Source: Eledone cirrhosa (Eukaryota). From it: a DNA stretch of 64,000 nucleotides. The notes under the pieces were generated by a model. That model was not told the DNA's origin. It was given only the letters and a program-made list of their open reading frames with translations, and did not search any database. Of this stretch, positions 5,171 through 60,265 are shown in pieces. The number at the start of each line of letters is the position of its first letter. Position 1 is the first letter of the stretch. Position numbers and translations under genes: made by a program. The DNA lies in NCBI GenBank assembly GCA_964016885.1, contig OZ024740.1, forward strand, positions 291,896,001 through 291,960,000. The letters are read 5' to 3'.

Positions 5171-5267
5171 AATTATACCCAAAATGCTAGGATATACACA
5201 GGAAAGGTGGCTGTTTTTCTGTGTGCCAGGTGCCATTTAATCCATGTCAGCATTTGCAATATATACA

Positions 5268-6240: not shown

Positions 6241-6883
6241 AAATATATGTGCATCTCTCTCTCTCTCTTGCTATATATATATATATATAAAAATAAGATT
6301 TTTTTTCACATGAGTGAAGTTGAAAATGTACATGGAATTTTTAAGAAGATATATTTACATTAACTGGTTTCATAATTTCATAATTTTCTCAAAGTTATGG
6401 AATTGGGCAAGAGATATGGTATTATACTGCAACTGTCTCACCTCTGGCCAGAATTTGAAAATTTGTTAATTTTTATAGAGAGAATGACTTAAATTACTAT
6501 TTGTTTAAGATTCAGTTTTATAGGTTAATAATGATGGTCATGAGATCACTTGTAAAATTTTGTTTGTTCCTCATGAAGTGTATTAGGGTCTTGTAACAAT
6601 ACAGGAGATTATTGTGTCAAAAATAAAGGGTGTTCGGGTTCAGTAAATGTATTATGTGACAGTCAAAAGTCAAGGCAGTGTAAATTTAGTGAATGTGTTT
6701 TATTATATTGCCATGTTTTATATTATACTATTAATTTTAGAAACAGGTGTTCAGGAATTCAAACTGTATAGTTTTTTCACTTTGATTTATGAAATCATTG
6801 TATATTTATTATATCATCTTTTCCTCTTTGTTTATTATTAGATGGAACATTGAAGTTAGAAAATATATTTCAGAAGATAAGAA

Positions 6884-8442
6884 ATGGCTTCAATAACCAA
6901 CAGATTCACTGATGTTAATCTCACTGATTATATGGATGTTGTTACTACATATAAGTGCCGTTTCTGTAATTTCTCTTGCAACCAGCCTCAAGAGATGGGT
7001 GTACATGTTCGTAATGTACACATAAAAAAATCTCTTTCGAAAATAAGCACTGATGCAAATACACAAGATATTGAACCGATTGAAAATTCTGCAGGTGATG
7101 TCACCATTGAAGAAGAGACAATACCAAATTTAACTAAAACTCCATCCGTAACCATTTCTCAAGAAACATCTACATTATCAGATGTAGAATCTGTTTCTAT
7201 GATTGAAAAATCTGATGCTGGGTCATTGATTGAATTAACATCCAATAATCAACAAGTTATTTTTACTCAAGCTTCTTTAAATGAACCACAAATTATTCCA
7301 ACCCACAGTGATATTTTAACACCTGGAAATATCTTACCATCTTACATTCATTTAGAAGCTCCAACACCTGTTGAAGACTCACTGGCTTTTGTTAATGAAT
7401 CTGAAATTAATTCAAAAACAATTAATCAGTTTTCTGTGGCTTCTTCTGACAATGATTTATCTGAAGCTCAAATAGAAGAGGAAGATGTTTTAACAAGAGA
7501 ACTGTTTCTGTGTGGTCAATGTAGAATAGGATTTAACAGTATTGAAGAATGTAAAGCTCATATGGTACAAGTTCACAATATTTTACCGGAGAAGGAAGAT
7601 AGTCAATTAACAGGTGAAACTGTTAATAGAGTCAGTGTTGGAACTCAAGTTACATCTACTAAAAAAAAGCCAGGTAGAAAACGGAAAAACCCATTACCTC
7701 AGAGGTCCTCTTCACCTGTTTCAGATAAAGACTGGGAGGAAGATGAAAATAGTGAATGGTATTCACGGAAAGGACGCAATCATAGAAAAATTCGTCCACC
7801 AAAAGCTCTTAAAGAAGATTATTATTTAGGTAAAAAGAAACGAAAGAACAAAGAGACCAATATTCTTACAGAAGGCTACAATCTGAAGTGTAGTGTACAA
7901 GGCTGTTTTGCCAAGTTTAAAAAAGACCAAAGTTTAAAGATTCACAGTACTTGCCACAAAAAAGAAGCAGAAAGGTCATTCTTTGAATGTAATGTATGCG
8001 CTGTTGAATTTCTTCTCTGGAAACATCTTAGAATGCATCTTTGGCGTTATCATTCAATTGATACTGATCTTTTTGCATGTGAAAACTGTGAGTTCAAGAC
8101 AGATACTATCCACAAATTACTGATTCATAAAGAAATTCATAGTGACCAAAGGCCATACACTTGTGATGTATGTTGGAAAGGTTTTAAGCAATTCAGTCAG
8201 ATGAGGAATCATCAAATGATCCATGCAGAACACCAATCAAATGATGCTGATCGTTGGTATACCACTAAACAGTGTGATATTTGCAAACGGACCTTTGCTA
8301 ATCAAAAGTGTTTAAGTAAACATGTTCAAGCTGTCCATAGTAAAATCAAACCATATGTCTGTCCATACTGTGGTCATTCAACAGCACGTAAAGCTATGTT
8401 ACAGTTACATCTACGTATCCACACTGGGGAAAAGCCATTCAA
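6884..8442 (+). CDS. C2H2 zinc-finger protein, coding exon 1 (8 fingers, AT-hook/NLS-like KKKPGRKRK)
   Basis: 520-codon ORF with repeated CxxC...HxxxH fingers and an HTGEKPF linker. It ends at the donor AA|GTAAGT (intron starts 8443, phase 2). Upstream acceptor-like pyrimidine tract and AG at 6840-6841, then an in-frame ATG-GAA-CAT-TGA, so ATG 6884 is the likely start. Confidence 0.92.
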
Positions 8443-8695
8443 GTAAGTTTATTTACATATCAAATTATTCTTTTATTTATTTATTTGATCTTCTACTGGT
8501 TTCAGTCATTGGACTTTGCCCATGCTGGAGTGTCATCTTCAAGCATTTTAGTCAATTATATCAACCCCAGTATTTTGTCTGGTGCATATTTTATCAAATG
8601 GCTGAGTTCACCTTTGGTGAAAATCTATGTAACTCGCTACATAAATATAACAAGGCTTGTTGAGAAAACAATTATTAGAAGTATTTGATCTCTGC

Positions 8696-10419: not shown

Positions 10420-10512
10420 TTATGCACTGTTGTACGCCCATTGATTAGATATATATAAATTATGTCTGATGCAGACACACACATATATATATATATTTAT
10501 ATATACACACAA

Positions 10513-13050
10513 TATAGAGGAACAGTGGGAATTTCTGAAAGCAAACCTGCTGATGGTGGCAGACGAAGTCTGTGGCTGGAGCAGGCCTATAGGCAGGAGG
10601 AGAGTAACGTGGTGGTGGAACAGTAAGGTGGAGGAGTCAATTAAGGCCAAAAAGCAGGCTTGGAAAGTATGGCGGGATGGGGGAAGTAGAGAAGACTATC
10701 AAGTGGCCAGGAGGGAAGCTAGGAGACAAGTGTACTTCACAAGAAGGGAAGCAGAGGAAAGAAAGTTCAAGCATGTTCTACAACGCGAGGACCAAAAACG
10801 CGAGGTGTTCAGGATTGCTAGGCAATGTGTCAAGGAAAACCGTGATATTGTCGGGGAGAAGTGTGTCCTTAATGATGATGGCGTACTTAACATCACTGAC
10901 GCTGATAAGAAGGTAGCTTGGAAGTGTCACTACGAAAGGCTACTAAATGAGGATAATAAATGGGAGAAAGACAGTCTCCCCCACATCGATCCAATAGAGG
11001 GACCAGCAGTGTTAGTCGAAGGTAGTATAATAAGTAAGGCAATCAAAGATATGAAGACGGGTAAGGTGGCTGGGCCTTCGGAAATAGTTGCTGAAATGCT
11101 GAAAGCTTCTGGATGGTGGGATACACCATGGTCACCCGGATAGTAAACCAAGTCATACAGAATGGGGTTGTTCCGAAGGACTGGCGTAACAGCATTATCA
11201 TTAACTGCTACAAGGGTAAAGGAGATGCCCTAGATAGGGGTAACTATAGAGGCATTAAATTAATCGACCAGGTCATGAAGGTCACAGAAAAAGTAATAGC
11301 GCAACTAATCAGAGAGCGAATTGATCTAGATGAAATGCAGTTCGGGTTTGTGTCAGGTAAAAGTACCACAGACGCTCTTTTCATTGTACGACAACTACAG
11401 GAGAAGTACCTAGCTAAAAGTAAACCCCTATACTTAATTTTTGTCGACTTGGAGAAAGCCTTTGACAGAGTCTCCCGTTCCATTATCTGGTGGGCTCTTA
11501 GAAAACTAGGTGTTGATGAATGGCTTGTGAGAGCTATACAAGCCATGTATAAAGAAACAGTCAGCAAGGTTAGAATTAACAACGAATATAGTGAAGAGTT
11601 TAACGTAAAAGTTGTTCATCAGGGCTCCGTTCTTAGCCCCCTACTATTTATTATTGCCCTTCAGGCTATAACAGTGGAGTTCAAGACCGGCTGCCCATGG
11701 GAACTCCTATATGCAGATGATCTAACGCTCATAGCTGAATCAATGGCTGAACTAGAGAAGAAATTCCAAACATGGAAGCATGGCCTAGAATCAAAAGGCC
11801 TTAAAATTAACCTGTCTAAGACTAAAGTTCTAGTTTGTAGGAAGGAAAATAGGGGACCGGTTCCATCCGGGAAATGGCCATGCTCAGTGTGTAGGAAAGG
11901 AGTAGGTAGAAACTCCATTTTATGTCCCAAATGCAAAGTATGGGTGCATAAAAGATGTAGTGGGATCACAGGTAAGCTAACTAAGAACATAGTTTTATAT
12001 GTGGCCGGTGCTCTGGTGCAATAAGTAGCAGCAAGTGCCCACAGAATACTAGCTCATTCCATTGCACAGATGGTTCTATAGAAATAGTGGACACCTTCCG
12101 TTACTTGGGTGACAAAATCAGCAGTGGTGGAGGGTGCTCTGAAAGTACAGTAGCTAGAGTCAGAACTGGATGGAAAAAGTTCAGAGAGCTTATACCACTA
12201 TTAGTCGCTAAAGGGTTTTCTCTAAAAATGAAAGGCAGGCTGTATGATGCCTGCATACGAACAGCAATGTTACATGGCAGTGAGACCTGGGCATTGTGTG
12301 CAGAGGATATACGCAGACTGGAGAGGAACGAAGCTTGCATGCTCCGCTGGATGTGTAATAGTAATATACGTGAACGGCAAAGCATAAACGAACTAAGAGA
12401 AAAATTAGAAATAAGAGGGATCAGATGTTGTTTACTTGAGAGAAGACTACGTTGGTGTGGTCACGTGATGTGCATGAAAGACGATAGCTGTATAAAAAAG
12501 TGCAGGGCAATAAAAATAGACGGTAGCCACGGAGTAGGCAGACCCAGAAAAACCTGGGACGACTTGATAAATTCCGACCTTACACACTTACACCTCTCCA
12601 AGACAATGTCACTGGACCAAGATCTTTGGCGCTACACAGTAATAGAGAAGACCCGCCTTACCTAAGTACAAAGTGAAACCTACTACAGTCAGTAGGCACC
12701 TCTAACAAAAATACACCCCCGTCCCACTACCCCTACCCCATCCACACCACCCCTTTCAATGTAAAGTTATGTTGGTACCACAACATCCAGTCCGAAACAA
12801 ATGAGGTCGTGTAGGTGTCACGACAAAAAAACACAGTCCACACTGTAATGTAGCCATGTAGGTAGCACGGTAAAAACCTCCCAGTTCCACACTGTAAACG
12901 TGGTTGGTGTTAGGAAGGGCATCCAGCCGTAGAAAACCCGCCAGACAGTCCTATGCGAGCAAGGCAACCACTCTTGCCTCAAGTAGGAAAACTCCCGTCC
13001 AAACCCATGCAAGCGTGGAAGATGGACGTTAAACGATGATGATGATGATG
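10513..13050 (+). mobile_element. 5'-truncated RTE-clade LINE (RT, PHD-like finger, C-terminal domain, 3' UTR, (GAT)n tail)
   Basis: Motifs NYRGIKL, QFGF, FVDLEKAFDRV, QGSVLSPLLF, LLYADD, HGSETW and GRPRKTW. Frameshifts near 11110 and 11995. Lies in the ZNF intron. Confidence 0.92.
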
Positions 13051-13465: not shown

Positions 13466-14490
13466 TATATATATATATATATATATAGACACATACATAC
13501 CGCACACAAATCGTCCTCCAATGTTAGTGAAGCTATTATTAATCCTCCCCGGATGAAGTAACTTGCAAATTCTTCGTAATTCTTTAAATGCAATTATACA
13601 TCTAATGGACACACTCTCTAGAATAGATATATTTGTGTGTGTGAGAGAGAGGTAGATAGACAGGTAGGTTGGCAGGTAGATAGATAGGACGATAGATCGA
13701 TATGTAGATATATAGGTAGGTAGATAGGAAGATAGACGATAGTGTGGTTATCTGTATATGTGGCTGTGTGTATGTATGTGAAGATGTGGAAATAAGGAAA
13801 GGATAATTTACTACAGTGCCAATGATTCAATCCACAGGTGTATATTCTTTTTACCATTGCATAAGTACATAGACTCACTCACACACGTGTATATATATAT
13901 ATGTGTGGTGTGTTTATGTGTGTATCTGTGTGTGTGCATAAGTGTTTATGTGTATATATATTTATATGTGTGTGTGTATCTGTTTGCTTATGTGTGTGTG
14001 TATGCATATGTGTGTTACTGTATCTGTGTATGTGTGCATATGTGTGTGCGTTATGTCCATGTGTGTGTCTGGTGATTGTAATGTTGAGAGTTTGAATCCC
14101 ATCAGTGCATTGTGTTCTTGAGCAAGACACTTTATTTCGCCTTTCTTCTCTCCACTGAAGTAAAAAAAAATGTACTCTGCCAGTAAGTCGAAGAACCAAT
14201 GTAGTCCCACCCTGAAACCCTCCGTTATACGTGTCTATGGAATGCTCAGACACTCTCACCTTAATTTCAGGCAGTTCCATTTGAGAAACCTTAGCTGGAA
14301 GAATCCTCGTCACAAGCAATAGGGTACCATCATACATATGAACACATAGACACACACACACGTTTCAAAGAGAATAGAAGAGATCAATAAAATAAGTATT
14401 AGGTTTTAAAATATAAGTACTGGAATTGAGGTCAAGAAAATCCTTTAATCCAGGTATCCCAGCATGGGCACAGTCTAACATCTGAAACAA

Positions 14491-17030
14491 GTGCAGGCCG
14501 GAGATTTTGTTCTTCCTCCTTCAATCTATGGTTCCCCTCACTTCTACAGTGAGTGCTTTCAAAATTCGATGACTGTGGTTCGACACATGGGAAAGCCATC
14601 TTATTTAATCATGGTAACAACTAACCCTAACTGGGATGAAATAAAAAATAGTTTGCACCCTGGTGAAGAACCTAGAGACCGTCCTGATATTTGTGCAAGA
14701 GTCTTCAAGATCAAGTATGACAGCCTTATGGATGACATACTGAAAAAAAATATCCTAGGAAAAGTTGTGGCTCATTCTGCTACAATAGAGTGGCAGAAAA
14801 TGAGGCCTCACTCATGCTCATATTCTGCTGATAATGGCTGAAGATAGCAAGCCCATTGATCAGGTAGTGTACTGTGAGATTCCTGATAAAGAGACCAATC
14901 CAATTCTGCATAAGATCATCACATCCTGCAACATTCATGGCCCATGTGGACAAGCTAATATGATGTGCTCATGTATGGAAGGGCTAAGACAACAACGCCA
15001 TTGCTCAAAAAGTTATTCCAAGGCATTCAGACAAACCACATTTGTTGCCGAAAATTCCTTTCTGGAGTATAGAAGAAGTGATAGACAGCATGGGGGTCAC
15101 ACCCATACAATCCAACTTAAAGGTCAAGAATTTACTGTTGATAATCGTTGGATTGTTCCATACAACCCTTTCCTCTCATTGAGATATCAGTGCCACATCA
15201 ATTGTGAGGTTGTCCACAGTGTCAAGGCTGTTAAGTACTTATATAAGTACATCACAAAAGGATCAGACAAGATCACTTGCACTATTAAGGATGATCAAGG
15301 AAATTGTGTCCATGCCCAAAATGAGATTGAGACCTATATCAATGCACGGTACATCTCAGCCAGTGAAGCATTCTGAAGAATCTATAAATTTCCATTACAT
15401 CATCAAAAACCGCCAGTTGAAAAGTTGCCTTGCCATTTACCTGGGGAACAAATGGTCGTGTATGAGCGAGGGCAGGAAGAAAGTATTGTTTCTAGGAGAC
15501 AGCCAATGACTAAGTTGACGGAATATTTTCAACTGAATATTAGAGACCCACTGGCACAAAACATATTGTATATTGATATTCCTAAATATTTCACTTGGAC
15601 AAGAAAAAAGGGACATCTGGATGGTGATCAACAATTTATGAGTGAATCTCTTGGATGCATTCCAACAGTATCTCTCAGTAGACATCAATCTGAATTATAT
15701 TACCTCAGGATGATCCTATATCACAAAGCTAGGTCAACTTCATACAAAGATTTAAGGACAATTGAAGGAGTTGGATTTCCAACATTCCAAGAAGCATGCA
15801 GGAAACTTGGTCTGTTAGATGAAGATGGAGAAAAAGACAAAGCTATGGAAGAGGCCTCACCCATTACGCTTGGTCCTCAGCTGCGAGAGATATTCTGCAC
15901 AATTTTATTGTACAGCATGCCAAATGGCCCTCTGCAGTTCTGGGAGAAATGGAAGAATTGTCTTGCATGAACGTCATGAGCAAGTCATGTCCATGCAAAA
16001 GAATTTTCTGCTTGAATGCAAGTGCAGGTACAGGAAAGACCTATGTCATAAACATCCTATTGGATTACCTCCGATCTAAAAAAAAAAAATTTGCACATGC
16101 CACTGCCATATCTGGAATAGCAGCCACTTTGTTTCACAAAGGTAGAACTCTTCATTCCAAGTGCAAGTTTCCTCTCAATGTGACTGCTGAATCAACTTGC
16201 TTCTTCACAAAGAGGGATGACACAGGTAAACTTATGCAGCAAGCTGATGAAAGACAGCTTGCAAACTACCTTCTTGATGTGGGAAATGGTAACATTCCAA
16301 CTGCTCCAACTGTAGGTGCATTCACAATTCTTCTGCCAAATGAACTTTGTCTGGAATATGGTAATGTGTCTGGACTGTGTGATTTTGTGTATACAAATCT
16401 TCCAGGAAACTACACAAACCCACTATGGCTTACAAATAGAGCCATTATCACTCCAACAAATGATGCAGCAAGATTGGTGAATGAGTTCATGGTCAACAAG
16501 TTCCCTGGTCATGAAATAATCTACAGAAGCTCTGATACAGTAGATAATGAACTGCAATATCCAATTGAGTTCAACAAACTTACCCCATCAGGCTTTCCAA
16601 CACACATACTTAAACTGAAGAAAGGCAGTTGCATCACGCTTCTGAGAAATCTGGATCCTCTAAATGGGCATTGCAATGGTACACGCTACATCATCATCAG
16701 TTTACATAATTATGTAATTGAAGCTGAAGTGGCATTGGGTCCCAATGCTGGAACAAGGTTGCTAATCCCAAGGATACCACATGTATCTCAAGAGCTTTCA
16801 CCTTTACTCACAAGCAATTTCCTGTCAAACCAGCCTTTGCCCTTACATGCAACAAGGCACAAGGGCAGACATTTGAAAAGATAGGTGTATATCTACCAAC
16901 ACAATTCTTCTCACATGGTCAGATGTATGTTGCAGCATTATCACGAGTTACAAAAAAAGAAAATATTAAAATATTAAATGAAAGGGGTCTGTTTGCTGAC
17001 AACTGTGTCTACAAAGAAATTCTACAGTGA
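14491..17030 (+). pseudogene. Helitron Rep/Pif1 helicase, decayed and internally deleted
   Basis: Rep motifs TTNPNW.EI, DRPD..ARVF, IEWQK..PHAHIL, HGPCG, VPYNP..S and KYLYKY. Helicase motifs AGTGKT, SGIAATL..GRTLHS, LLRNLD..GHCNGTR and FSHGQ.YVA. Multiple frameshifts. Confidence 0.92.
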
Positions 17031-17540: not shown

Positions 17541-19954
17541 AAGCTTCCCATCGACATTCTCAAGTGAAGATTCATGAACATTTTCCATCAACAGTTTCAT
17601 TGCTTTTCCATCTCCATTATCGCCTTTTTTTTAAATGTATCAAGGATTACTTTACTGATTACAGAAGTGTAACACAGTCTTTGTTCAGTTTATGTGCATA
17701 TTGTCAATTTACGTATTATATCTATGTGCATATATATTTGTGTATATCAATATACACACTATATATGCTAGCAGAAAACCGCCCGAAGGGCGGTTCTTCT
17801 GCTAGTAATACTAATGATGTATGATAAGTATAACTAAAGATAGACTGATGTATAGAGACATGTAACCTATGCACTGTTAAGTACACACTAACAAAATATT
17901 TGTATTTTAACAATACTAATATTTTCCCATTTTAAGGAATGTACTATAAGAAACTGCTTTTTCACCCTTTCTTTACCATATTTCTGATGCCTATGATTTT
18001 CAAATATTTTTGTTAATTATCTAAAATTTGGAGGGTTTTAGTAATATAAATAACTTTCTTACTATTTATCTGATGTTTGGAACATGACTTAACAAAGATC
18101 CTTACATTAAATTACGATGGAAGGATTTTAGATATAAACAGTTTTGTCATAGAATAAGACTTGGTATGAAAAGAGTTAACCCTTTAGCATTTACATTATT
18201 CTATATATATTATTGTATTTTCATGTTAAAGCCTTTCTTATATAATTATTTCACATAATATTGAATCTGAGATTTTGATGTCATTCATTTTGAGAACAAT
18301 ACCTCAACATAAGTATGAGTGACCAGGTATGGCCAGTTTGAACAGAAGAGGCAAGAGCATTCTGGCTGGTTTAAATGCTAAAGAGTTAATCTTTGTTATG
18401 AGCATCATGTTTATTTTAAGGTGACCCATGTGTAAAACAATGTCTTTCTATGTCTCTTACTCCTTATCATTTCATCCTTGAGGTCCTAATCTTCTGAGAT
18501 TCAATTTAACTCGCCTCAACTGTGTGTGTGTTCTATTTTTCCTAAGTCAACATCCACTACAATTTGTGTCCCTTTCTCATCCAGTATCCATTTACTTACC
18601 AGTGCTATTGTTTCACCCACATGAATGGAGCTAATGTTTCTTATTTCTATAGATCAGAGGCTCAGTGTTTGCAAAATATTGAACCATTGTCTATCCACAT
18701 CATAAATACTGAGCATTACTATTGCTCTCTTTCTACTGGCTCCTCATTTTAACAACCAGAGAAGACTAATAATGAAAAATAGAAGAAATCCATTAGACAT
18801 ACTGGTTATTTTAAACATCTTGAAAAACTCTTAAGCTTCTGTGAGAAGCATTTGCCAGTTTAGTGGAGAGGCAGTGCTGGATAGTACCCATCCAACCAAT
18901 GCAATCATGGAAAAACGAACATAAAAAGGATGATGATGATTTTCAAGAAGAGGTCAACTTTGTTTTTCATCTGAGTTCAGATTTTACTCAGGCCTACTTT
19001 GCCTTTTATCCTTCTATGAATGAAATACTAGTCAAGTGAGAACTGAAACCTGCTAGATTAGCTGAACTCTCACCCTGGTGTACAACACTCACCACATACA
19101 TTAGATTTTAAGAAATCTCATCTGCTGTTGAATAGGTTAGCTTTCAAATATGAAGATCATTTTATTTATATATATATCTAATTTCAACATTGTTTTGTAA
19201 TAGGTGATAACACTAAATACATGGACTACATAAAAGTTCTTCTTAATTGTTCCTCAACTATGTACTTCTTCTGTCTCTCTGATGTGAAAAACTTTCAGTG
19301 GATGTCACCTTACAATCCCAGCAGATGCAATTTCAAAGGTGTCACTGTGGAGCATAGTGAGGGAGATATGTTGAAAAGGCCACAAGTGTTGGGCAATGAA
19401 ACCTATATCTACTGCTGAATTGACCAGGTTGCTGCTGGTGAAAGTCATTGCATGTCAAGTCTCAGATGAGGGGATTATCATTGTGGAATGTGAGGATTTT
19501 AAGGTCATCTAACTTTTTGCCGTCCCTATGATGTAACCCCACCAGTTCAAGCTGTGATTGGAAGCCAGCGATGTCTAAGCTGCACTTAATGATCTTATTG
19601 AAAGCAACATGTGAAATGAACTGACACTGAGGGGGTATGACAACAAATAAAGACTGAAACCATATACCATAGATTCACTATGGCATTTGTGTTGCTCACA
19701 AACCCCAGGGCCAACCGGAGGGAAATAGCAATACAGAGACAGTGAAATTATAGATTTAAGCAGTTATTTCCATTCATTATCAAAAATTGAATAATACAAT
19801 GAATTTAGCTTTTGCAATTTGAAAGTCATGCAAATTTTAATAATCTACTTTCTTTATTACTTTCTTCATTATTTTCTTTATTAATGTAAAAATTAATTTA
19901 TTCTTAAAAGATTTTTGTTTAAATGATGAGTTTATTTTATTTATATTTATTTAG

Positions 19955-20840
19955 GTGTGATGTTTGTCAGTATGCTACTGGAGATCACAACTCGCTCCGA
20001 CGTCACAAAATGCGTCACTCAGGATTGAGGCCGTACAAATGTCAATATTGTTCCTACTCATGCATTCAGGCCATTTCTTTGAAGACTCACATGAAAAATA
20101 AACATCCAGGTTCATCTGGAATTTATCACTGTGATATTTGCAACTACCGAACTGTAAATGCTACCAGTTTTTCTAACCATGCCAGTGATCACAAATATGG
20201 GTTGATTAATGTTCAAGAAGATAGCAGCACCACCACCACTACTACCAGCACATTACCAACAACAACAGTGTCTACTACTACTGTTGAAACAAGTAGTAGT
20301 TTCACAGCTATCTCTTCCACCAATAATAAAAATATATTACAAAAAGTCAATACTGTTAGTAATAATGAAATACAAACTCAGTTAGCACCGGTAGAGAATA
20401 GTGTTTCAAATCTTAGTGCAGATGACATTATTAAAATGGCACAAACAGGGAATAACCTGGTCTCAACAGATCTCACTGCTGCAGAATTAATCTATGCTAT
20501 TGCAACCAATTCTTTACCACAAGACTCTCAGATGCTTTCTGGGATGCAAGCAACCATAAATACATCTTCTAAACAAGGAGTCTCAACTCATACAATTACT
20601 TTACATTTACCACCATCTCAGTCACAGATTGCCTCAAATGAAAGTTCTTCTGATCCAAGAAACACTGGCCATACTTTATTCATGGTACAACCAGTAGAAT
20701 TATGTTCTGTAAATAATGATTGTAATTCACAAACTCTTCCTCCTGAAAATATAAATGTTGATTTCCAAGCAGCTGAAAGTACAGTGACTGCTACAGAAAT
20801 TGTTTTTGATTCAGACGACAAAACTGTTACTACTGAATAA
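19955..20840 (+). CDS. C2H2 zinc-finger protein, coding exon 2 (3 fingers, then S/T/N-rich tail)
   Basis: Acceptor TTTATTTAG|G at 19954/19955 is phase-compatible with the donor at 8443. The join reads HTGEKPFK-CDVCQYATGDHNSLRRHKMRH, a seamless linker plus finger. Spliced CDS is 2445 nt (814 aa). AATAAA at 20963. Confidence 0.92.
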
Positions 20841-25554: not shown

Positions 25555-28385
25555 TCAAGGATCAATTTCCCCCTCGTCCCTCTGCATATGAAAGTCTGCC
25601 GTCCAGGTCGGTGGTCTACGACTTTGTTGCGATCTTCGTAGTATTGGGGCAGGGCTCTGGGTTTCCACCCCATCTTGGGTTTCCTCTTCCTCGGAGTCCG
25701 TCGACACAGTGATTCTTCTTACATCCAGGACATGACGTGGTACCCCGTCCACGGACACATTATTCTTTGAATTTACGGCCGTCACCGTTCCCCTTCCCCA
25801 TTGAGATGTGCAACGTGCATCTGGGGGCTTAACCCAGACTTCTTCGCCCACCTGCACGAATGCACTCTCTCTCCCCACTGGCCGTTGTGGTGGCGTGCAC
25901 GGGTGCCGCCACTCGTATTTGAATACTGCTCTATGTGGCACTGCTTCCTCGACCTGTCCAACCCGAGGGGACATACTGTACCAGAATACTGCCTCCATTG
26001 GTGAGATATGGCCCCGCTCCGCCATTGACTTGATCGTCCGGTGGTGTCGCTCCACGATTCCATTCCCGCTCGGAAGAAACGGTCCACCTTCCATCCATCG
26101 AGCATCTCCCTCAGTGCCTCCGAGCGGAATGCTGCGCTGTTGTCCATCAGCAGTTCATCCACAGGGCCCCGCTCCAAGAACACCTCTCTCAACGTCCGCA
26201 CGATTTCCTCGACCGTTCCAGTCTTCATCTCCCTCCATATCGCCATTCGACCTGGTCCACAGTCGACCATCGAGAGGTACGTTCCCTGCCGGTAGTGCGT
26301 CACATCCACCGCTAATCGCTTCCAGTCGCGATCCACCGGGAGGCTTCCCGTTTCGTGTACACCCGGGGCGGGATCAATGGACTGACATCGGACGCAGCCT
26401 CTAACCACCCCCCGAACACTGTGTCTGCTAACGTCCGAGTCGATTCTCCTGGCTAGGAACAGGCTCCTATCCACCCCCATGTGGTGCATGTCATGCAACC
26501 CCTTCAGGTCTAACTCGGTCAGCCGACACACGGCAGCTATCTCATCCTCTACCTCCTCCCGCGCTTCCATCCAGGCTTTCTTCACTCTAGTTAAGATGTC
26601 CGCCCTATTTTTCTCTGAGGGCACGAACACTACGCTCAGCTTCAGGTCGAACTCGGTGGCCAGCTCTCCTAACGTTCCCAGGCGGCGCTTTATCAGCATC
26701 TCCGCCGCACATCTCGTTCGCACTCTCTTCTCACTGGTGAGCACTGATCTTACCCATCCGAGTACGGTAGCCGAGTCGGTGCGTATCTCGATGGTGCGCA
26801 GCCCCCACCGCAGGGCGAGGTTCACCCCTCTCAACACCGCGTCCAGCTCGGCCACATTGATGTGGCTGCAGTCGTCCTTCTTTCTAAGCCAGGCTGCATC
26901 CTCGACCTCAACACCTCCTATCTCCAACGTGACACCCAGCGCTATGCTGCTGGCATCGCACCATACGGTCCCGCTCCGTGATTTGGGAACGTACCAGCGT
27001 CGTCGGCCTTCACCCTCCCCACGATCTCCTGCATCATGGCCACCGTTCTCTGTCACTCCAAGTCACCCCTCCCGCTCGTCTCTTGACATAGCTGCATGCC
27101 GTCCGGAGCCACCCAGCGATCGGGTAGTGACCCACCAGCTTTCCACACACCGAGAAAAGCTCCCGCCTATTCATACTTGGGCCCAGTTCCGGAACTTCGT
27201 TTCCCCTCTGGAACACCAAAACGCCCGTCTTATCTCGCCGTAGCCTAAGTCCCAGCGCGGCTCCTCCCTCCAATGCTTCTGATGGCTTCGCAGTCAGTCC
27301 ATACCTCCGCAAATGGCTCGTGACCTCCGCCGTCGACACCACCGACTCGTCCACTAGGATGTCGTTAATGTAGGAGTTAGTAGCCCTCTTTATCTTGTCG
27401 GCCCTCCCCAGAGCGGTCTTGAGGACCGCCGCCAAGATCTTCGGTGTGGAGCTCAGCCCGAAACCGAGCCTGGTCAGGCAATATGTCCGGCCCTTATACC
27501 TGACCAGCTGATACCGCCAGAGCTTCTCATCTATATGCAACTGCAAGTAAGCCGACTTTAGATCCACGATCGCTGAACCCCCCGTCATGCGTCTCCACTG
27601 ACGCAGGGTTTCCCCACAGACATCCGTGACCTCGCCACCCGTGTGGCATGACACGTGCTCGTTCAGCTCTCGATAGTCCAGCACCGGCCTCACCTTGCTC
27701 TTCGTAGGTTGCACCACCGCCATCAACGGCAATACTCCGCACTTCACCTCCTCCTTCCAGGGAAGCAGTATGCCCTCTTCGATCCATCTCTCTACTTCTC
27801 GCTCGAACTCGCCCCTAGCGTTTCCCTTCAATGTGTGTTGATAGCAGCCCACTTTGGTCTTCAGTGTTGGTGGTTCTCCCTTCCAGTACCACTCAACAAC
27901 CCATCGCTGCCCATCAAACACGGCCTTGAAGTCCTTGTCCTGTACAGTGTAAGCGGGGTATTGCTCCTCGTGGGCCTTCTGGTTCTCATGACGTGCACTC
28001 ACAGCGCATACCGATGCAGTGGCGCCAAACGACACACCAACATTGTTCACCGTGACGCCCCCTAGACGGCCAATCGCGTCCATGCCCATAACCACGCCAA
28101 TCCCATCCACCACACTGTCTACCACGATGGCGGAAAGCCTTATCGTCCTTCCCCGTACCGCTATTTCCATCTCGCTGCGACCTCGGCATTCAATTTTCCT
28201 GCCGTCGACTGCCCTTACGCTGCTCTTCCCTCCCCACCTCTGTGCCACCCCCGCGGTCACCAGTGTCGTCGTACAGCCCGTATCCACGAGGGCTCGCTGT
28301 GGCTTCCCCCTCACGAAGACTTCCACCACGGGCAGCGCCGCTACTCGTAAGGGGAAACTACCGGCGCAGTAGTTCCCCTTGGATC
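25555..28385 (-). pseudogene. pol: Retrotransposon Pol (protease, RT, RNase H, DDE integrase), disrupted
   Basis: Protease ALVDTGC; RT RPVLDYRELN, VDLKSAY and YIND (YIDD mutated, codon at 27364-27366); RNase H CDAS / HINVAEL / TDS / NRADILTR; integrase HHCC plus D(VTH), D(N), E(RHH). Split across three ORFs by frameshifts near 27040 and 26070. Confidence 0.9.
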
Positions 28386-28392
28386 GTTTCCC
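28335..28392 (-). other. -1 programmed ribosomal frameshift signal (G GGA AAC plus H-type pseudoknot)
   Basis: Slippery heptamer in the gag frame, 5-nt spacer, stem AAGGGGAACTAC/GTAGTTTCCCCTT, loop GCGCCG pairing with downstream CGGCGC. The -1 frame is open into pol. Confidence 0.85.
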
Positions 28393-29103
28393 TGGTTGCA
28401 GTTAGTAGCGATGTGGCCTGGTCGCTTACACCGGTAGCAAATTATATCCGGCTTCGACTCTCTACAGTCTCTAGCCATATGCGGGCCGTGACACCTAAAA
28501 CAGCGGCCCCTAAATTCTCGCGAACGGCCGCGTGCCGAGGTTGCCTCCCTTTGACCATTTCGCTGCCAGGTGTCCTGAGCCTCCGTAGTCGCTATCGCCG
28601 CAACACTCTTTTTGGCATCTTCCGTTATGATCCGGGCTTGTTCCACCAGTGAACGCATTTCCATCTCCTTGTACCCCGGGACTTGCTGCAGTTTCACCGC
28701 TATGTCGTCCGGAAATCCATTGATGAATGCCAACCGCACCGTGCGTTCGCATTCCGCCTGGTAACCGGCCAACATAGCCAACCGCCTTATTTCCGCTGCG
28801 AAAATGTCAACGCGCTCACCATTCCACCTGATTCTCGCCAGCTTAGCAAAAGCCGCCAACGGTCCCTCGGCGAATGCATCCATCAGACGCCTCTCAATCT
28901 TCTGCACATCTCTTTGGCTGTGCTCGTCCAACTCAAGGAAGAGTACCAACGCGTCGCTCTCGAGGTACAATGCAATGAGACCGGCCACTTCTTCTATCTT
29001 CTGCAAGCCTGCGACCAGCCGAACCTTCCGCAGCCAAGCGACAACATCACCTTCCCCGGTGAATGGCCTGATAGCTTCGTTCATCCGTAGTCTTGTCGCC
29101 ATC
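28341..29103 (-). CDS. gag: Retrotransposon Gag with two CCHC zinc knuckles
   Basis: ORF MATRLRMNEAIRPFTGEGDVVAWL... containing CFRCHGPHMARDC and CYRCKRPGHIATNC. Confidence 0.88.
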
Positions 29104-29185
29104 TTCTGATTTGTTTTGCGGCAAGTGTTTTCTTTTTCTTTTCTTTTTTTTTTTTTTTTTTTTTTTTTCAGTCGCCGAAATAGCT

Positions 29186-29437
29186 TGTAGTTAGGATATC
29201 TCACCGCTTTTCACAGGCGCCGCTAAATTCCACTGCAGGTACTCCTCTTCCACGTGCGTCCGACTGCTTAACACCGGGAGCTGCCCAAAACTTGCGTCCA
29301 CACCGTATGCTGGTCACTAGGGAGAGGCCCTCTCCTGGCCCTTCCGGTCGAGCATCCTTCCGGTCAAAGACCCCTTCCGGTCGAGCACTCCCCCCCCCCC
29401 CCCGCCTCCGGCCACCGCACACCACACCATACCCACA
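29186..29437 (-). repeat. 5' LTR
   Basis: Direct repeat of 25272-25541, TG...CA termini on the minus strand. Confidence 0.93.
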
Positions 29438-31440: not shown

Positions 31441-34400
31441 CAGGGCAACAAAGGAAGAGAGAAATTTTTTACAAATTAATTAAATTTGTCATTCTGATTT
31501 TTTTAATTTTACAAAGTATATGAAGTACGCTGAATTGGCAGTCATTAGAACGTTGGATAGAATGCTTTGTGGTATTTGTTCTGTCTCTTTGAGTTTTACT
31601 TTGCTTTTCATTCTTTCAAGATCTATATAAAAAGAAGTACCAGCTCAGTACTGGTATCGATTCTTCCACTATATCTTATCACTTCCTCTCTCAGGGGAAG
31701 AAACCGACTGTGTTTTGATTTGGAGAAGGGATGGGCTCTGTCACGTTTAAAGTGCTCAAGACGACGTTTCTACGACTTCATCGAGAATTACAGATCCATA
31801 TATACATGCATAAATTTTTCTATGTACTAACGTTTTATCTATTTTGTGTATGTGTGACGTCCGAACGAGTATCTTTCACGCCCAAACTAACTTACCTTCA
31901 GTTTTGGGTCCCGGCTGACAAGACGGCGAGGGATGCAGCCAACTCAGCTCCGATAGAAATGAGGAGGGGTGTGGTTCAGGGGCCAAGAACGCCAGAAATC
32001 CCCACTGATACAGGCTCTACATATATGGAAAAGCACCATAATCTATAAAGTGCTTAACTCGGCCTTACTCAACATGTAGATTAATTTTGATGGAAACATA
32101 AACGAACTCAATCAATTAAGAATTAATTACCGTGTTTGAAATGTCATTAAAGTATGTAATATCTAGTTCAACGAATCTCATTTGGGTGATAAATATACCC
32201 AGCGACAAGTATACATGTCTGACTACTTTAATACAGTAAATAAAGTCTATTAATCAATTCCAGAACCCGTAAATGAATTTGTATTTTGCTGTTTTAAGAA
32301 GGCAGTGTGTGATCTGAGGGTAATTTGGGTGCCACTTCTAGCAAGTCGAGCGTAGAGGTTTTTTAAATTATTATTTGACAATGTTTAAAATAGCTATATG
32401 ACAAGGAAGCTAGTTTTTATGTTCGAAATGATTGACATGCGTATATAAACAAGGCTGTAGTTAAACAATATTTTCAGTGTATATATAAGTTACACTCGAC
32501 TGTGACTTCCACACATTTCCGTTTCACATATCACAGGACTGATATGGTATGGTCATGTAACTCCTAGCGGAGTCGTACGGCGTTTCTTGAGCATTTTAAA
32601 AGTGTCCATCCCCCTCTCCAGGTCTGAATACAGCAGATTTATTCCAGAGAAGGATAGAGTGAGAGAATGGACGCGAAAAAGTAATATAGAGGAAGAATCG
32701 ACCTCAGTACTAGACTGATATTTTTTGTTATCGACCTAGGCGGGATTTGAACTCAGAGAGCAGAGATCCGAAACGAATACTACAAGCCATTCTATCCGAC
32801 GTTCTAACAACTCTGTCAATTCACTACCTTATTGTCACTGATACAGTAAGTATCTGTAAAATGTGAACGAAACTCTAATTCCTGGACCCGGAAACGTCAC
32901 TTCAGCTGTTCAAGGGAGATAATCGTGAAAGAGTTCCCCCCTCAACCCATTGCGTTTCATCTTGTACCTCAACACATCCATAAGTAGATGTGACTCTTCA
33001 ACTAAATATTTATATGGAACGAAAGGTAACAGATTGTTTTGTTTTTTGTTGTTGCCTCCACCACCACCGCTCTTTATTTCTATTAATAAACCCTTCTCTC
33101 CTTAAATACCTGAATTTCTATTTACTTATAATGTGAATCTGTCACAAACATTTATTTTACTTGTAATGAAGCTATCACCAAAATAACAATTTCAATTTAA
33201 TTATTGTCCAAAATGTTTTGATTGACGGTCATCTGTTATCGTTTTTATTGTCCAGATGTCAGCTAATTGAGATCTTGTGTCTTTTTAATTGGGCCATTAC
33301 ATAAATGTGTCAAGCGAGACAATTTTATAAATGAAATATTGTATGAGTAGGCATTTTTATATTAATATTAACCAGAGGGTAATCTAGTTCTGTTAGTTAT
33401 CTTAAAGAAATTTTACTAACAGATTTTTATTTCTTAGTTTTATCTGTTTGTAATAACAGTTCCAAATAAAAAGGTAATATTAATTATTTAATCAATATCT
33501 CTCCCAACTAACGTAGTCTGGGTTTATGTAAAGTCCAGTATTTTCCTGTTTTCTTAGTACAAAGTCCTTGAATTTTCAACAGGCGTCGATAGCAGGACAG
33601 AAGAATAAAAGTATATTTCTAACAAGTAATATTACCTTTCTGTGTGTATGGGATATATGTTTTAGTAATGACCATCGCTTATTCTACCTGGACATACACG
33701 TGGCCACCACTATCTCCCCACTACGACACGTCATTTTCTGTTTAATCCGTTCTTGTTACATTTGATAGGTCAAATTAACAAACACAATTAGATTTCTACA
33801 GAAACCCTTATCGATATTCACCTGAAATAACAATTTTCTTATAATTAATCTCTTTATATAGTCTTGTATATGCCAAATTATCATATATTGTACATTCTTT
33901 TGGTTTGATGTCATTCAAAATTTATTGATTTATAAATGATTTCGTCTGTCTCATCCAAACGGGACATTTCATTTCGAAATCTTCACGCGAATTAAGTTCG
34001 TTTCTGTTTTACGCAAATCCAAAATAATCACACAACCTATTAAATATATATTTAAAGAAAAACAACAACTAAAAGCAAACTTGTTTCCACAACTGTTTAT
34101 TTGGTACAGACATGGGAGTGGGAGAGAGAGAGATATATATATTCAGCGAGAGAGAAAGACAGACAGAAAGAGAGAGACAGAGACTGTCTGAATTCTTTAT
34201 AGTATTTAGTTCAGTGTCTAGTAAGTATTGTTCTTCGAAATAACTATTTCCAACCCTCATCCTTCTCACCACTTCCCCTCACCCCTACTGTATATCATTC
34301 CACAGGTACCACACTGACCACTATATCTAATTCTTTATGCTCAGAACAGTTTTGCTGCTGACGTTTATTTACAGATGTTCAAATGATATATCAGTCGTAT

Positions 34401-37962: not shown

Positions 37963-38937
37963 AGATACATAGTGGTTATATATGTTAAATGGATTTGCTT
38001 CAGACACATGGAAAAGTGTGAAATAATTTATTAAAAAAAACAAAAAAACAATAGTTATTTGTAATAGAAGTTTCATCTATAAGGCTAGTCACAACTCTGA
38101 TGTAAATGGAATTCAAAAGTTCTTATACAGGTTTCTGGGCTTTTTTTTTTTTTGTAGATGTCCTTTTTGAAAAAAAACCCACCTTTTATTTATTGAAAAA
38201 GGAAAAAAAAATCAGCTGTCAATTTACATGAAAGGGAGTGGAGAGGATATGATGAATTGTTTGTTGATTTTGTTTTTAGAAATAATTGTTTCTACTTTAG
38301 GCACAAGGCCAGCAATTACCCAGTGCATCACTGGTACTTTATTTTATCGACCCCGTAAGGATGAAAGGCAAAGTCAACCTCGGCGGGATTTGAACTCAGA
38401 TCGTAAAGGGACGTAACTATGCTGGAAAGCATGGCGTCCGACTCTCTACCGATACTGCCAATCCAGAAATAATGTTTAATTTTTAGGAATGTTAGAAGTG
38501 GGTGGTCTGCCTTTTAAAATTTGAATTATTTTCCATGTACACAAGTGTGTGTGTTAGTATTCATATTAGTATATATGTATGTATGTTTCTGTGTAAATGT
38601 TATTAGGTATGTATATTTCTTATATGTGTTAGTATTCATGTTAGTATATATATATATATATATATATATGTTTCTGTGTTAATGATATTAGTTATACATA
38701 TATGTTTGTTATATAAAAAAATTGCCAATTTATTTCAATTTTCAAATTTTCTATATATTTCAGCTTCAAACCATCTTATTTAGAAAGAATTTTCAAGAAT
38801 GTCACTCTGACTAGGGACATATATATAATACATATTTTTTTATTCACCTTATATTTAAATATAGAAAATAACATATTTTTAAAACAACCAAAGTATCATT
38901 AAATGTCAAATGTTTCAAAGAAATTTTTCTCTACACA

Positions 38938-40683
38938 ATGAATTGTGAAGGAAAATCTACTGCAGTAATGAACACAAAGAAATTAGTGACCAAAAGCAAC
39001 AGTGGAAGGCCTGTAATGTTTGATTTCCACAAAAAAAATTTCCCTTTTCAAAACCATTTTAGTAAATATTTAAAAAACTATAATACAGAAAATTCTGGTA
39101 AAAAATGTTTTTTGAAGCCATTTTTTTATTCCAAAGGTCTTTCAAAGAATTTAAAAATACATTTCTTATATGAATGCACTTTCTGTCAAAAACTTTTTGC
39201 ACACAATAGCAACCTAAACAGACACATGATGGTACATTCAGATGAGAAATTGTTCCAATGTAATCTTTGTGAAAAATTTTTTACATCATCGAGTAATTTA
39301 GGCACGCATTTAGGAAACCATTCAGGAACCCAAATGACAAAAAGCCCTTTTAAATGTGGATATTGTAAAAAGATATTTACAAAATCAAATGAACTTATCA
39401 AACATATTGAGTTACACACAAAACAAAATGCTAACCAACAAAAAACGAACTGCTCTTTGAAAGCTGATTCTTTAAGTGAAGGATTTAAGAGTTGTCTGGG
39501 CACAAAATACATTGGTGAACAGTCAATGTCAGCCAAAGATAACTGTAGTTTTGATCAACATTACAAACCTGACCATACGTACTGTTTCAATACCAACCAG
39601 GAGTTGAATGATGGCAACAAAACAAATCTACTTCCATTTGCTGACAATAGCAAGTGCAGTTCAAGTACTATTGAGAAAAGCCAGTTACAACCAGACCACA
39701 CATATTGGTCACATGCTAAAAAATCTCGCTTCTGTAAAAGAAAAGTAAAATCTTCACATTTCAGTAAAGAACCTCCATTGAATCAGTCAGGTTTCAAGAA
39801 ACCTAATATTGAATCTGACCATACATATAGTTCGGGTTCTTGTTCTGACATACTTTGGGATAAGTTACATTTAGAACCTTTGACTTGTAATAATGCAGTT
39901 GTGCCTGAAAAAAATGTAAGAAAGTTAAAACCTGACCACACATACAGCATTGGAGTTCATGATAACCAAAACACAAATACTCAAGAGGATTCATATTTGC
40001 AGGATATACACCATTCCCATACAGATAGTCATGGCAGTAATTCTAGAAAGACTGCATCTCTGAACACCCAGCATAACCAGTCACATACAGATTGTAATGG
40101 CAGTAATTCTAGAAAGACTGCACCTCTGAACACTCATTGTAACCAGTCACATACAGATAGTAATGGCAGTAATTTTAGAAAGACTACACCTCTGAACACT
40201 CAACATAACCAGTCACATACAGATAGTAATAGCAGTAATTCTAGAAAGACTATACCTTTGAATACCCAGCAAAACCAAAACTGTCAACAAGTTAACACAC
40301 CTCTGAAAAAGTCAAGTAAAAACAATTGCATTGATCAACCAGTTGAAACAGCAATACATTGTTCAAATGTCTCTAAACCTGACCACACATATTCTCATAA
40401 AAAAGTTATTTCTAATATGAATAATTTAAAAACATTTGGAAGTAGGTCAGTTAAAACAGACTGGGATAAATTTACTCTTCAAGCTGCAAAAGAAAATCAG
40501 CCTTCTTTTGATCATACATATTGTTCTGATGCTAAACTTCAAAAAGAACCTGATGGGAAAGGTACTGCTGATCATACTTACTGTCTGGAGGAAGATGATT
40601 TTATTTGCTCACACAACTGGAATGCAAACATGATGTTAGATCACACATATTGTATGATGCATGCAGTCACACGTCACTTTTGA
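38938..40683 (+). CDS. C2H2 zinc-finger protein (3 intact fingers) with 8 DHTY (HCF-1-binding-like) motifs and a 22-aa tandem repeat
   Basis: 581-aa intact ORF in very AT-rich DNA. Fingers: YECTFC..HMMVH, FQCNLC..HLGNH, FKCGYC..HIELH. Upstream acceptor ...TATTTCAG at 38763. AATAAA at 40816. Confidence 0.88.
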   Translation: MNCEGKSTAVMNTKKLVTKSNSGRPVMFDFHKKNFPFQNHFSKYLKNYNTENSGKKCFLKPFFYSKGLSKNLKIHFLYECTFCQKLFAHNSNLNRHMMVHSDEKLFQCNLCEKFFTSSSNLGTHLGNHSGTQMTKSPFKCGYCKKIFTKSNELIKHIELHTKQNANQQKTNCSLKADSLSEGFKSCLGTKYIGEQSMSAKDNCSFDQHYKPDHTYCFNTNQELNDGNKTNLLPFADNSKCSSSTIEKSQLQPDHTYWSHAKKSRFCKRKVKSSHFSKEPPLNQSGFKKPNIESDHTYSSGSCSDILWDKLHLEPLTCNNAVVPEKNVRKLKPDHTYSIGVHDNQNTNTQEDSYLQDIHHSHTDSHGSNSRKTASLNTQHNQSHTDCNGSNSRKTAPLNTHCNQSHTDSNGSNFRKTTPLNTQHNQSHTDSNSSNSRKTIPLNTQQNQNCQQVNTPLKKSSKNNCIDQPVETAIHCSNVSKPDHTYSHKKVISNMNNLKTFGSRSVKTDWDKFTLQAAKENQPSFDHTYCSDAKLQKEPDGKGTADHTYCLEEDDFICSHNWNANMMLDHTYCMMHAVTRHF

Positions 40684-40930
40684 ATGAAGATCTCATTTCA
40701 AAAGTAGGTTTTTAGACATATTTAAAAATTCTAAGGATGTATTTTATTGTTTGACATGAACCTGAAATATATTTGCTCTTTTAAAGATCAAATTTTGCTA
40801 TGCAAAAATGTTGAAAATAAAATATAGATTTTTTCAAGAATATTACAATTATGTTTCTTATTTTCATTTTGCAATTTTATCAATTTATTAATTTTATTTA
40901 TACTGTGTAAACTCTAATTATTAAATATAT

Positions 40931-58014: not shown

Positions 58015-60265
58015 ATAGAGATAGTAACAGTTAAACTACTATATGTTAACAGTGATAGTTAGTAACAGTTACAACTACTACATGTTAACAGACATAGTAA
58101 CAGTTATAACTACTATATATTAACAGAGAGACAGTTAGTAACAGTTATCTATATATCTAAAACACAGAATGTCTGTCTGACTCCCTAAAACTTGAGAAGC
58201 ACCCAACCGATTGTTTTCAAACTTTACACATGTAATACTTATGGTCCTGTAAGTGTTTTGAACAAAAAATATTTCAAATTTTCAATGCCCTAGGGACCAC
58301 ATTAGGCGATTTAGCGATCTCTCTCTATCATTCTTAGTCTTTCTTTTTAGATAGATACATAGATATAATGTTGCGCCCTTATAATTGTTTCTACATTTGG
58401 CACAAGGCCAGCAATTACCCAGTACATTACTGATACTTTATTTTATCGACCCCGTAAGGATGAAAGGCAAAGTTAACCTCGGCGGGATTTGAACTCAGAT
58501 CGTAAAGGGGCGTAACTATGCTGGAAAGCACGGCGTCAGACTCTCTACCTATACTGTCAATCCACCGCCCTTATAATATCTGTCTGTATGTCTAGCTGTC
58601 TGCATTACGATATTATGACGTCGCTATATATGTGTGTGTGTATATATATATATACATTGTGTGTAACGTTTTTCGAAATATTTACTTCTGCGTTCACAGA
58701 TCGATTTTTTTAGTTTCAGAAGATCCCGCTAAGGGTGAAAGCAACGATTCTTTACTTAAACTTTAATCTGTTATTTTAATATATATATATATATAATTAT
58801 ATATTCGTGTACAGATATTTTTGCATACACAATAACAAAATATAAACAAAAGTATTTATTTTGCGATAAAGTATTGATTTTCTTTGCACGGAAAAAACCC
58901 TGGTAATCTACAACAAATTTTTTTTTATAAGCATAAAATGTAGACACCATCCCGAGGCCGAGGTATTCCGTACTTCTCTGTACTGTTTCAGAAAGGGGGG
59001 ATAAACATGCCAATCTATGTTTAGAATCCCGAGCATTCTGCTAGTAACTACTATGTTAACAGAGATAGTTAGTAATAGTTATAACTACTATATGTTAAAA
59101 ATAGTTCGTAATAATTATAACTACTATATGTTAACAGAGATAGTTAGTAATAGTATTAAATACTATATGTTAACAGAAACATAGTTAGTAATAGTTGTAA
59201 CTAGTATATGTTAACAGGGAGATAGTTAGTAACAGTTATAACTACTATATATTAACAGAGGTAGTTAGTAACAGTTATAACTACTATAAGTTAGAAATAG
59301 TTAGGAATAGTTATAACTACTGTATGTTACCAGAGAGATAGTAATAGTTATAACTACTATGTTATCAGAGAGATAGTTAGTAATAGTTATAACACTATAT
59401 GTTAACAGAGATAGTTAGTAATAGTTATAACTACTATGTGTTAACAGATAGTTAGTAATAGTTATAACTACTATATGTTAACAGTGATAATTAGTAGTAG
59501 TTATAACAAGTATATGTTAACAGATAGTTAGTAGTAGTTATTATTACTATATGTTAACAGTGATAGTTAGTAATAGTTATAGCTACTATATGTTAACAGA
59601 GATAGTTAGTAATAGTTATAACTACTATATGTTAACAGATATATAGTTAGTAATAGTTATAACTATTATGTTAAGAGACATAGTTAGTAATAGTTATAAC
59701 TAGTATATGTTAACATAGATAGTTAGTAATAGTTATAACCACTATATGTTAACAGTGATAGTTAGTAATAGTTATAACTACTATATGTTAAGTGATAGTT
59801 CGTAACAGTTATAACTACTATGTTAACAGAGATAGTTAGTAGTAGTTATAACTCGTATCTGTTAACAGAGATAGTTAGTAGTAGTTATTACTATTATATG
59901 TTATCAGAGAGATAGTTAGTAATAGTTATAACTACTATATGTTAACAGATATAGTTAGTAATAGTTATAACTATTATGTTAAGAGACATAGTTAGTAATA
60001 GTTATAACTAGTATATGTTAACAGAGATAGTTAGTAATAGTTATAACCACTATATGTTAACAGTGATAGTTAGTAATAGTTATAACTATTATGTTAAGAG
60101 ACATAGTTTGTAACAGTTATAACTACTATATGTTAACAGTGATAGTTAGTAGTAGTTATAACTACTATATGTTAACAGTGATAGTTAATAATAGTTATAA
60201 CTACTATATGTTAACAGTGATAGTTCGTAACAGTTATAACTACTATATGTTATCAGAGATAGTTT
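58015..60265. repeat. About 40-bp AT-rich minisatellite (about 30 copies), interrupted by a Helitron
   Basis: Unit AGAGATAGTTAGTAATAGTTATAACTACTATATGTTAAC. Confidence 0.92.
58148..59044 (+). mobile_element. Non-autonomous Helitron inserted in the minisatellite, with a nested SINE
   Basis: A|TCTATATATCTAAAA...CTGCTAG|T. Removing it restores the satellite unit AACAGTTA/TAACTACT with no TSD. A related partial copy lies at about 22030-22385 (-). Confidence 0.8.

Follow-up and report, generated by a model that had tools for sequence, protein, structure and literature searches.

An array of eight DHTY motifs in the tail of a cephalopod zinc-finger protein, a candidate multivalent partner of HCF-1

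Described HCF-1 motifs and comparable architectures

The short word [D/E]HxY is the binding motif of HCF-1 (PMC13631171; 10.1101/813352; PMC5644247; 10.1101/2023.08.07.552219); it is entered in ELM as LIG_HCF-1_HBM_1 ([DE]HxY) and present in THAP1/3/7/11, CREBZF, KANSL3, DIDO1, SETD1A and herpesvirus UL48/VP16. A proteome-wide screen is reported to have found 66 of 347 human D/EHxY peptides to bind HCF-1, with Asp before the His (H-1) in 51 of the 66, and the screen taken with mutational scans describes a preference for a small x and a hydrophobic residue at H-4, whereas a charged residue at +1 (the residue after Tyr) and Pro at +2 are disfavoured, as is Trp at +1 in some contexts (10.64898/2026.03.19.712392). 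Since just this fraction of the peptides bound, a match to the consensus is often insufficient for HCF-1 binding, and THAP5 is reported to have the motif and to have failed in co-immunoprecipitation with HCF-1 (PMC13631171; 10.1101/813352). The literature, in the portions available to us, treats these motifs singly, with one motif per factor among the known partners (THAP4 has two non-canonical ones), and no precedent for the effect of an array was found in it. As for what HCF-1 does, in mouse cells its recruitment via the Kelch pocket is reported to bring TFIID to CpG-island promoters (10.64898/2025.12.28.696747), it is described as promoting O-GlcNAcylation of most of its transcriptional binders (10.64898/2026.03.19.712392), and it is also tied to repression (10.1101/2022.08.26.505062).

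Two other groups of zinc-finger proteins bear on the comparison. In ASCIZ/ATMIN, an extended disordered tail lies behind the zinc fingers and bears a motif for the hub protein LC8 7-11 times over, LC8 being a dimer that is itself the product of ASCIZ's own target gene (as described in PMC5963919), and repeated motifs for one domain are said to raise affinity in general (10.64898/2026.07.03.735260). KRAB, ZAD and FiNZ are non-finger parts of C2H2 proteins common to hundreds of paralogues, KRAB and FiNZ being N-terminal and on an upstream exon (as described in PMC10547256). Cephalopod C2H2 genes are reported to be greatly expanded (PMC12513265); the searched text of that paper has 0 matches for the term HCF, and in two of its supplement files the accessions of the orthologues described below were not found.

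The zinc-finger protein described here, of DNA-binding type, resembles the known HCF-1 motif proteins in the motif core, with Asp at H-1, a small residue at x, no charge at +1 and a +2 other than Pro; as in them, its motifs may sit in a disordered region. Unlike them it has 8 or 9 copies per chain, all eight shared copies have Thr at x, and H-4 is often polar. Its likeness to ASCIZ, as architecture only, is that a zinc-finger factor repeats one hub motif many times along its tail, whereas the motif and the partner are different and no homology is shown. As with KRAB, ZAD and FiNZ, the proposed recruiter of a chromatin cofactor lies outside the fingers of a C2H2 protein; here, though, it is dispersed over the C-terminal part, shares an exon with the fingers and was found in one gene. 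Our search, which lay largely outside subscription journals, found neither this gene nor any array of HCF-1 motifs described in the literature. The motif and its reader are known already, and what appears to be new is that a single factor has eight or nine copies and conserves them.

The gene, its fingers and its tail

The window, that is the whole 64-kb stretch of DNA that was analysed, has on its + strand an open frame at 38872-40683 that gives 581 aa when counted from the first in-frame ATG at 38938. This ATG comes after an in-frame stop and the orthologues share the Met or have one nearby; we take 38938..40683 (+) as the coding sequence, in a single exon (P0001, the window's protein). A likely splice acceptor of the exon, a pyrimidine tract with AG at 38762-38763, was identified at 38741..38763 (+) from the sequence and from the end of a 2,214-base contig of run X4 (run type not on record), which aligns from 38762 to 40912 with 63 letters unaligned at the acceptor side. 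Because the X4 contig breaks at the acceptor whereas the contigs of runs X1-X3 continue past it to 38682, its end hints at a transcript that is spliced and begins with a non-coding exon. A sequence-based lead for this exon and its promoter is the candidate region 32880..33027 (+) with a donor-like AG|GT at 33025/33026, the word ahead of which we presume to be ETS/CRE-like, and a candidate poly(A) signal is present at 40816..40821 (+). The 2-3 kb contigs of Logan proteins were considered as a sign of expression and rejected, since the DNA-like runs X1-X3 yield a 2,302-base contig across the same exon.

The rest of the window has several other features. Two large exons of another C2H2 gene with Pfam matches and no DHTY are found on the same strand 18 kb upstream (6881-8446 and 19923-20840, +). 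By eye, frames at 10445-12665 (+) and at 5191-5610 resemble a broken LINE reverse transcriptase, those at 14479-16884 (+) resemble a Helitron in fragments (replication protein, helicase), and those of a GC-rich region at 25555-29210 (-) resemble an LTR retrotransposon in several pieces (gag knuckle, protease, reverse transcriptase, integrase). A 39-bp minisatellite of about 32 copies occupies 59047-60264, with a related unit at 58022-58147.

The first-pass annotation had described three C2H2 fingers ahead of a low-complexity tail, and PF00096 indeed matches three stretches (56.1 bits against a cut-off of 25.2), while Pfam finds nothing in the tail. These intact fingers (aa 78-100, 106-128 and 138-160; 39169..39417, +) also agree with the pattern C-x2-4-C-x12-H-x3-5-H of C2H2 proteins, and their recognition-helix residues are largely conserved in the orthologues, from which sequence-specific DNA binding by the three fingers is inferred. 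The linkers between fingers are partly non-canonical in octopods as per the alignment. Ahead of the intact fingers are a decayed finger (aa 26-48; 39013..39081, +), recognised from the alignment and the finger pattern and present as an intact C2H2 finger in the orthologues P0004-P0006, and a second finger-like unit (aa 55-75; 39100..39162, +), which is without two metal ligands in all 6 aligned proteins and has a near-invariant helix segment. The latter unit may serve for contact with other proteins or be a finger of unusual type.

Motif counting and alignment place the eight DHTY copies, all in the one open frame of the + strand, at 39571..39585 (motif 1, DHTY-C), 39694..39708 (motif 2, DHTY-W), 39817..39831 (motif 3, DHTY-S, with C in distant orthologues), 39934..39948 (motif 4, DHTY-S), 40381..40395 (motif 5, DHTY-S, again with C in distant orthologues), 40510..40524 (motif 6, DHTY-C), 40570..40584 (motif 7, DHTY-C) and, with the conserved C-terminal end included, 40639..40680 (motif 8, DHTY-C, from the alignment). 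These are the same eight codon starts (39571, 39694, 39817, 39934, 40381, 40510, 40570 and 40639) as had been noted at first pass, and the distances between successive copies (41, 41, 39, 149, 43, 20 and 23 aa) bear out the recurrent spacing of about 40 aa (41, 41, 39, 43) seen there. A six-frame scan of the window found DHTY at these 8 sites only. On shuffling the tail 100,000 times, DHTY was obtained once in 441 shuffles, twice in 1 and never more, as against the 8 observed; the count of the looser [DE]HxY peaked at four (1 shuffle), and in 20,000 shuffles no 4-mer of whatever kind rose above four occurrences.

The annotation had also held that the DHTY codons vary only synonymously and that the sequences between motifs are largely unrelated. 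The former is upheld by the eight 12-base copies, in which 59 of 59 pairwise differences fall on third codon positions. The latter holds for the flanks, which are unlike between copies, with the exception of the residue after Tyr: in motifs 1-8 this +1 residue is C, W, S, S, S, C, C and C (likeness p about 0.006). Beyond it, comparison of the copies revealed no residual likeness among the 40-aa blocks save scattered single columns, and our working word, read from these sequences, is DHTY-[C/S/W].

The 149-aa gap between motifs 4 and 5 contains a 66-bp (22-aa) tandem repeat of 4.1 copies, rich in Ser, Thr, Asn and His (40010..40277, +), which was found by repeat search; its expansion is confined to the window's protein, none of the aligned relatives having more than one copy. 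A basic stretch after motif 2 (39727-39750, +), with Lys residues kept in 6 of 6 proteins, is a candidate nuclear localisation signal. In an AlphaFold2 model (from a weak alignment of 6 rows) the fingers alone fold and the tail is a low-confidence coil with a mean pLDDT of 35; the polar composition of the tail and its many indels across the alignment agree with disorder, and together these lend weak support to a disordered tail.

Conservation of the array and its confinement to one locus

Querying proteins with the tail returned 5 orthologue clusters among 2,212 candidates. The P0002 cluster includes records of Octopus bimaculoides, O. vulgaris and O. sinensis, P0003 is an Argonauta hians protein, and P0004-P0006 are taken, from their divergence alone, as squid or cuttlefish proteins; identity to the window's protein is 77, 65, 37, 37 and 36% for P0002-P0006 in order. 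The records carry the automatic name 'zinc finger protein 184/429-like' (XP_014781270.1, XP_029636805.1, CAI9722878.1, GAB1598794.1), which ignores the array although they have the same fingers and eight motifs; they are without the 22-aa repeat expansion. All eight motifs are kept in 6 of 6 aligned proteins, with 32 of 32 motif columns invariant, whereas only 30 of the 241 other ungapped tail columns are invariant, 9 of these 30 touching a motif. Identity of the spacers to P0004-P0006 is 60/293, 66/301 and 70/314 (20-22%), as against 52-53 of 81 in the finger region. The proposal made at first pass that selection keeps the motifs, for which their loss from orthologues would have been fatal, is thereby supported by all five orthologue clusters, and the alignment shows the pattern of a selected short linear motif whose surrounding tail drifts.

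Some variation around the motifs is also seen. Thr is at x in 50 of 51 motif instances of the six aligned proteins, and a ninth, looser motif is present in P0004-P0006 and absent in octopods; its variants are DHIY in P0006 and P0024, and GHTY in 3 of the 14 listed P0004-cluster members that include the tail. Internal duplication probably enlarged the array, at a time before this lineage and that of P0004-P0006 parted. The 25 C-terminal residues around motif 8 (40600-40680, +) are conserved above the other flanks, the invariant residues being Cys, Ser, Met, Val, Arg and, as the last of the chain, Phe; they may widen the interface of motif 8 or form another motif at the C terminus. The +1 Trp of motif 2 is invariant, and Cys is the +1 residue in 4 of 8 motifs of the window's protein and 6 of 9 in P0005. 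This Cys would allow the His-x-x-Cys of DHTYC to bind metal, making the tail a metal-binding or sensing region, a reading we regard as very improbable: at motifs 3 and 5 some orthologues have Cys as the +1 residue where others have Ser, motifs 2 and 4 have no Cys, the invariant Thr and Tyr are poor metal ligands, and the AlphaFold2 model from 6 rows predicts no folded repeat.

The same comparisons bear on whether the DHTY words could remain, without selection, from CA/TA microsatellites or ancient tandem duplications. Within the codons there is indeed a run resembling CACACATA, and at another place in the genome a CA-rich satellite (L109) translates to repeated PDHTY. But the copies differ at third positions only and all 8 are kept in relatives whose spacers have changed by about 80%, and a neutral origin of this kind is hardly credible to us. 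The satellite itself (G000:C5:24629000-24631600) translates to His/Thr/Tyr words including the repeated PDHTY, and CA-rich satellites of its type could seed HCF-1-like motifs in octopus coding DNA.

It had further been suggested that the array is an effector module for lineage-expanded C2H2 genes, like KRAB or ZAD. Such a general module of the expanded cephalopod family would sit well with a C2H2 factor that is confined to octopods and P0004-P0006, and with the reported expansion of C2H2 genes in cephalopods (PMC12513265). Our searches point the other way. Two tail queries match their own locus only in the 3.0-Gb genome, and the gene is apparently single-copy by this measure. The finger query gave at least 210 matches (best 150 of 10,483 candidates scored), the next best having an E value of 2e-16 against 2e-90 for self, and identities of 33-54% among the matches listed. 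From 84 finger-match loci, a small sample of the family, we read 88 other open frames with at least 2 fingers, leaving out separate upstream exons; in their 25,390 non-finger residues DHTY was found in 0 of 88 frames, a single [DE]HxY in 3 and two in none. A genome-wide pattern of Pro-DHTY plus two bases matched 62 places (control 107) with two clusters: the first is formed by four copies in this gene and is the sole cluster in register, and the second (G000:C5), considered as a second gene, was rejected as the CA-rich satellite, its four copies being out of register and at distances of 29, 97 and 29 bases from one another. Searched against 1,835,955,588 representatives, a profile built from the six tails matched 2, both orthologues. 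The suggestion of a family-wide module is thus not sustained by the single locus and the 0 of 88 frames, and we hold it to be highly unlikely.

As regards distribution, the finger region of P0005 used as query gave 41 proteins. Five are the orthologues already described; the other 36 (29-46% identity) are generic zinc-finger proteins, and 33 of them are without [DE]HxY outside the fingers. By this result no orthologue beyond the group was found. ESM Atlas gave no usable match for two tail queries and PDB none for the tail. Because neither the tail profile nor the finger query yielded a further orthologue, the gene looks restricted to this group and is probably coleoid-restricted within the reach of these searches, in which a profile that also weighs spacers could miss unrelated arrays of DHTY.

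HCF-1 as the probable reader of the array

The first-pass reading of DHTY as the HCF-1 word [D/E]HxY stands for the core, in that all 8 copies have Asp at H-1 and Thr at x, while the +1 residue never carries a charge and +2 is never Pro, as the core published rules would have it. CREB3/LZIP, too, has DHTY as its motif. The N-terminal flank fits the rules in part only: the favoured hydrophobic residue at H-4 is found in 5 of the 8 motifs of the window's protein and in 3 of the 9 of P0004. The string DHTY was not found in seven supplement files of PMC13061025.

A cognate pocket is present in the same genome, where PF13854 matches HCF-1 Kelch exons (G000:C12) that are near-identical to the Octopus HCF-1 protein P0029. 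The Kelch domain of P0029 is identical to bovid HCF-1 at 276 of 350 positions, and all five of P134, L138, S202, R228 and L257 (bovid HCF-1 numbering), mutation of which is reported to weaken motif binding (10.1101/813352; 10.64898/2025.12.28.696747; PMC13061025; 10.1101/2023.08.07.552219), are kept in octopus HCF-1. A complex prediction for the Kelch domain (P0029, 3-352) and the last motif (P0001, 548-581), made without alignments and in a setting unvalidated for peptides, scored 0.03 against a mark of 0.34 and counts neither way; no solved HCF-1 Kelch chain was among the best 20 PDB matches.

To rationalize these observations, we consider it reasonably probable, on sequence grounds, that this is an apparently single-copy zinc-finger factor whose tail of eight DHTY motifs docks in the Kelch pocket of HCF-1, recruiting several complexes or holding one by avidity. 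The three fingers would bind a conserved DNA site and each DHTY would dock in a Kelch pocket, and since the word matches the HCF-1 docking motif, several HCF-1 molecules would likely be gathered at the bound DNA. With several sites occupied at once, either multiple HCF-1 complexes would be loaded or one would be held through avidity. If the mammalian pathway applies, OGT, SET1/MLL-type complexes and TFIID would be delivered and the target promoters activated, and the Ser/Thr-rich tail would gain O-GlcNAc modification. The effect on transcription could be of either sign, because HCF-1 can also repress. Against a recruiter count the often polar H-4, the +1 Trp of motif 2, the constancy of Thr beyond the HCF-1 rules and the precedent of THAP5.

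The constancy of Thr deserves separate mention. It exceeds what the HCF-1 rules need, as other small residues should be tolerated there, and this hints at a further constraint or another reader. Because Thr is kept almost throughout (the 50 of 51 motif instances above), DHTY-[C/S] might be read by some other protein, or be a site of Thr or Tyr modification, with the likeness to HCF-1 motifs being secondary, and the frequently polar H-4 would agree with this. Yet Asp, His and Tyr are the exact HCF-1 anchors, and within a zinc-finger protein; a whole-word literature search for DHTY found nothing relevant, and we know of no other reader of the word. We find this reading distinctly unlikely.

ASCIZ offers a different use of HCF-1 binding. 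As ASCIZ, the closest architecture, loses activity when LC8 occupancy rises, the DHTY array could by analogy bind HCF-1 as a sensor or sponge, its occupancy reporting free HCF-1 and tuning the factor, perhaps at the HCF-1 or OGT gene. The likeness of plan favours this, ASCIZ too having its fingers ahead of an extended tail, described as disordered, in which a single hub protein finds 7-11 sites (in the account of PMC5963919), as do the reported ability of HCF-1-motif peptides to displace other HCF-1 partners in cells (PMC13061025) and the differing flanks of the eight sites, which would give graded affinities. But LC8 is described as a dimer that cross-links two chains (PMC5963919), the like of which was not found for the Kelch domain in the literature available to us, and no target gene is known; the sensor or sponge is in our estimate unlikely. 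A wider proposal, which we offer tentatively and think doubtful as a whole, is of a coleoid factor whose whole effector region consists of 8-9 HCF-1 motifs, which loads several HCF-1/OGT complexes and acts as an HCF-1 rheostat or buffer, with Thr as a modification switch, and which would be the HCF-1 counterpart of ASCIZ-LC8.

Returning to docking on HCF-1 as the preferred reading, its interest is that HCF-1 connects transcription factors with OGT, SET1/MLL complexes and TFIID, and a natural factor with 8-9 motifs lets the scaling of HCF-1 recruitment with valency be tested, the possible outcomes being avidity, several complexes, condensates or buffering, in an array that has come unbroken through a deep divergence. 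Such a test would be cheap, since the Kelch pockets of octopus and mammals agree and ordinary cell lines can serve to assay the tail. For the cephalopods, the array does not provide the missing KRAB-like module of the expanded C2H2 family; rather, one conserved zinc-finger gene, out of well over 1,000 per genome, gains a concrete cofactor hypothesis.
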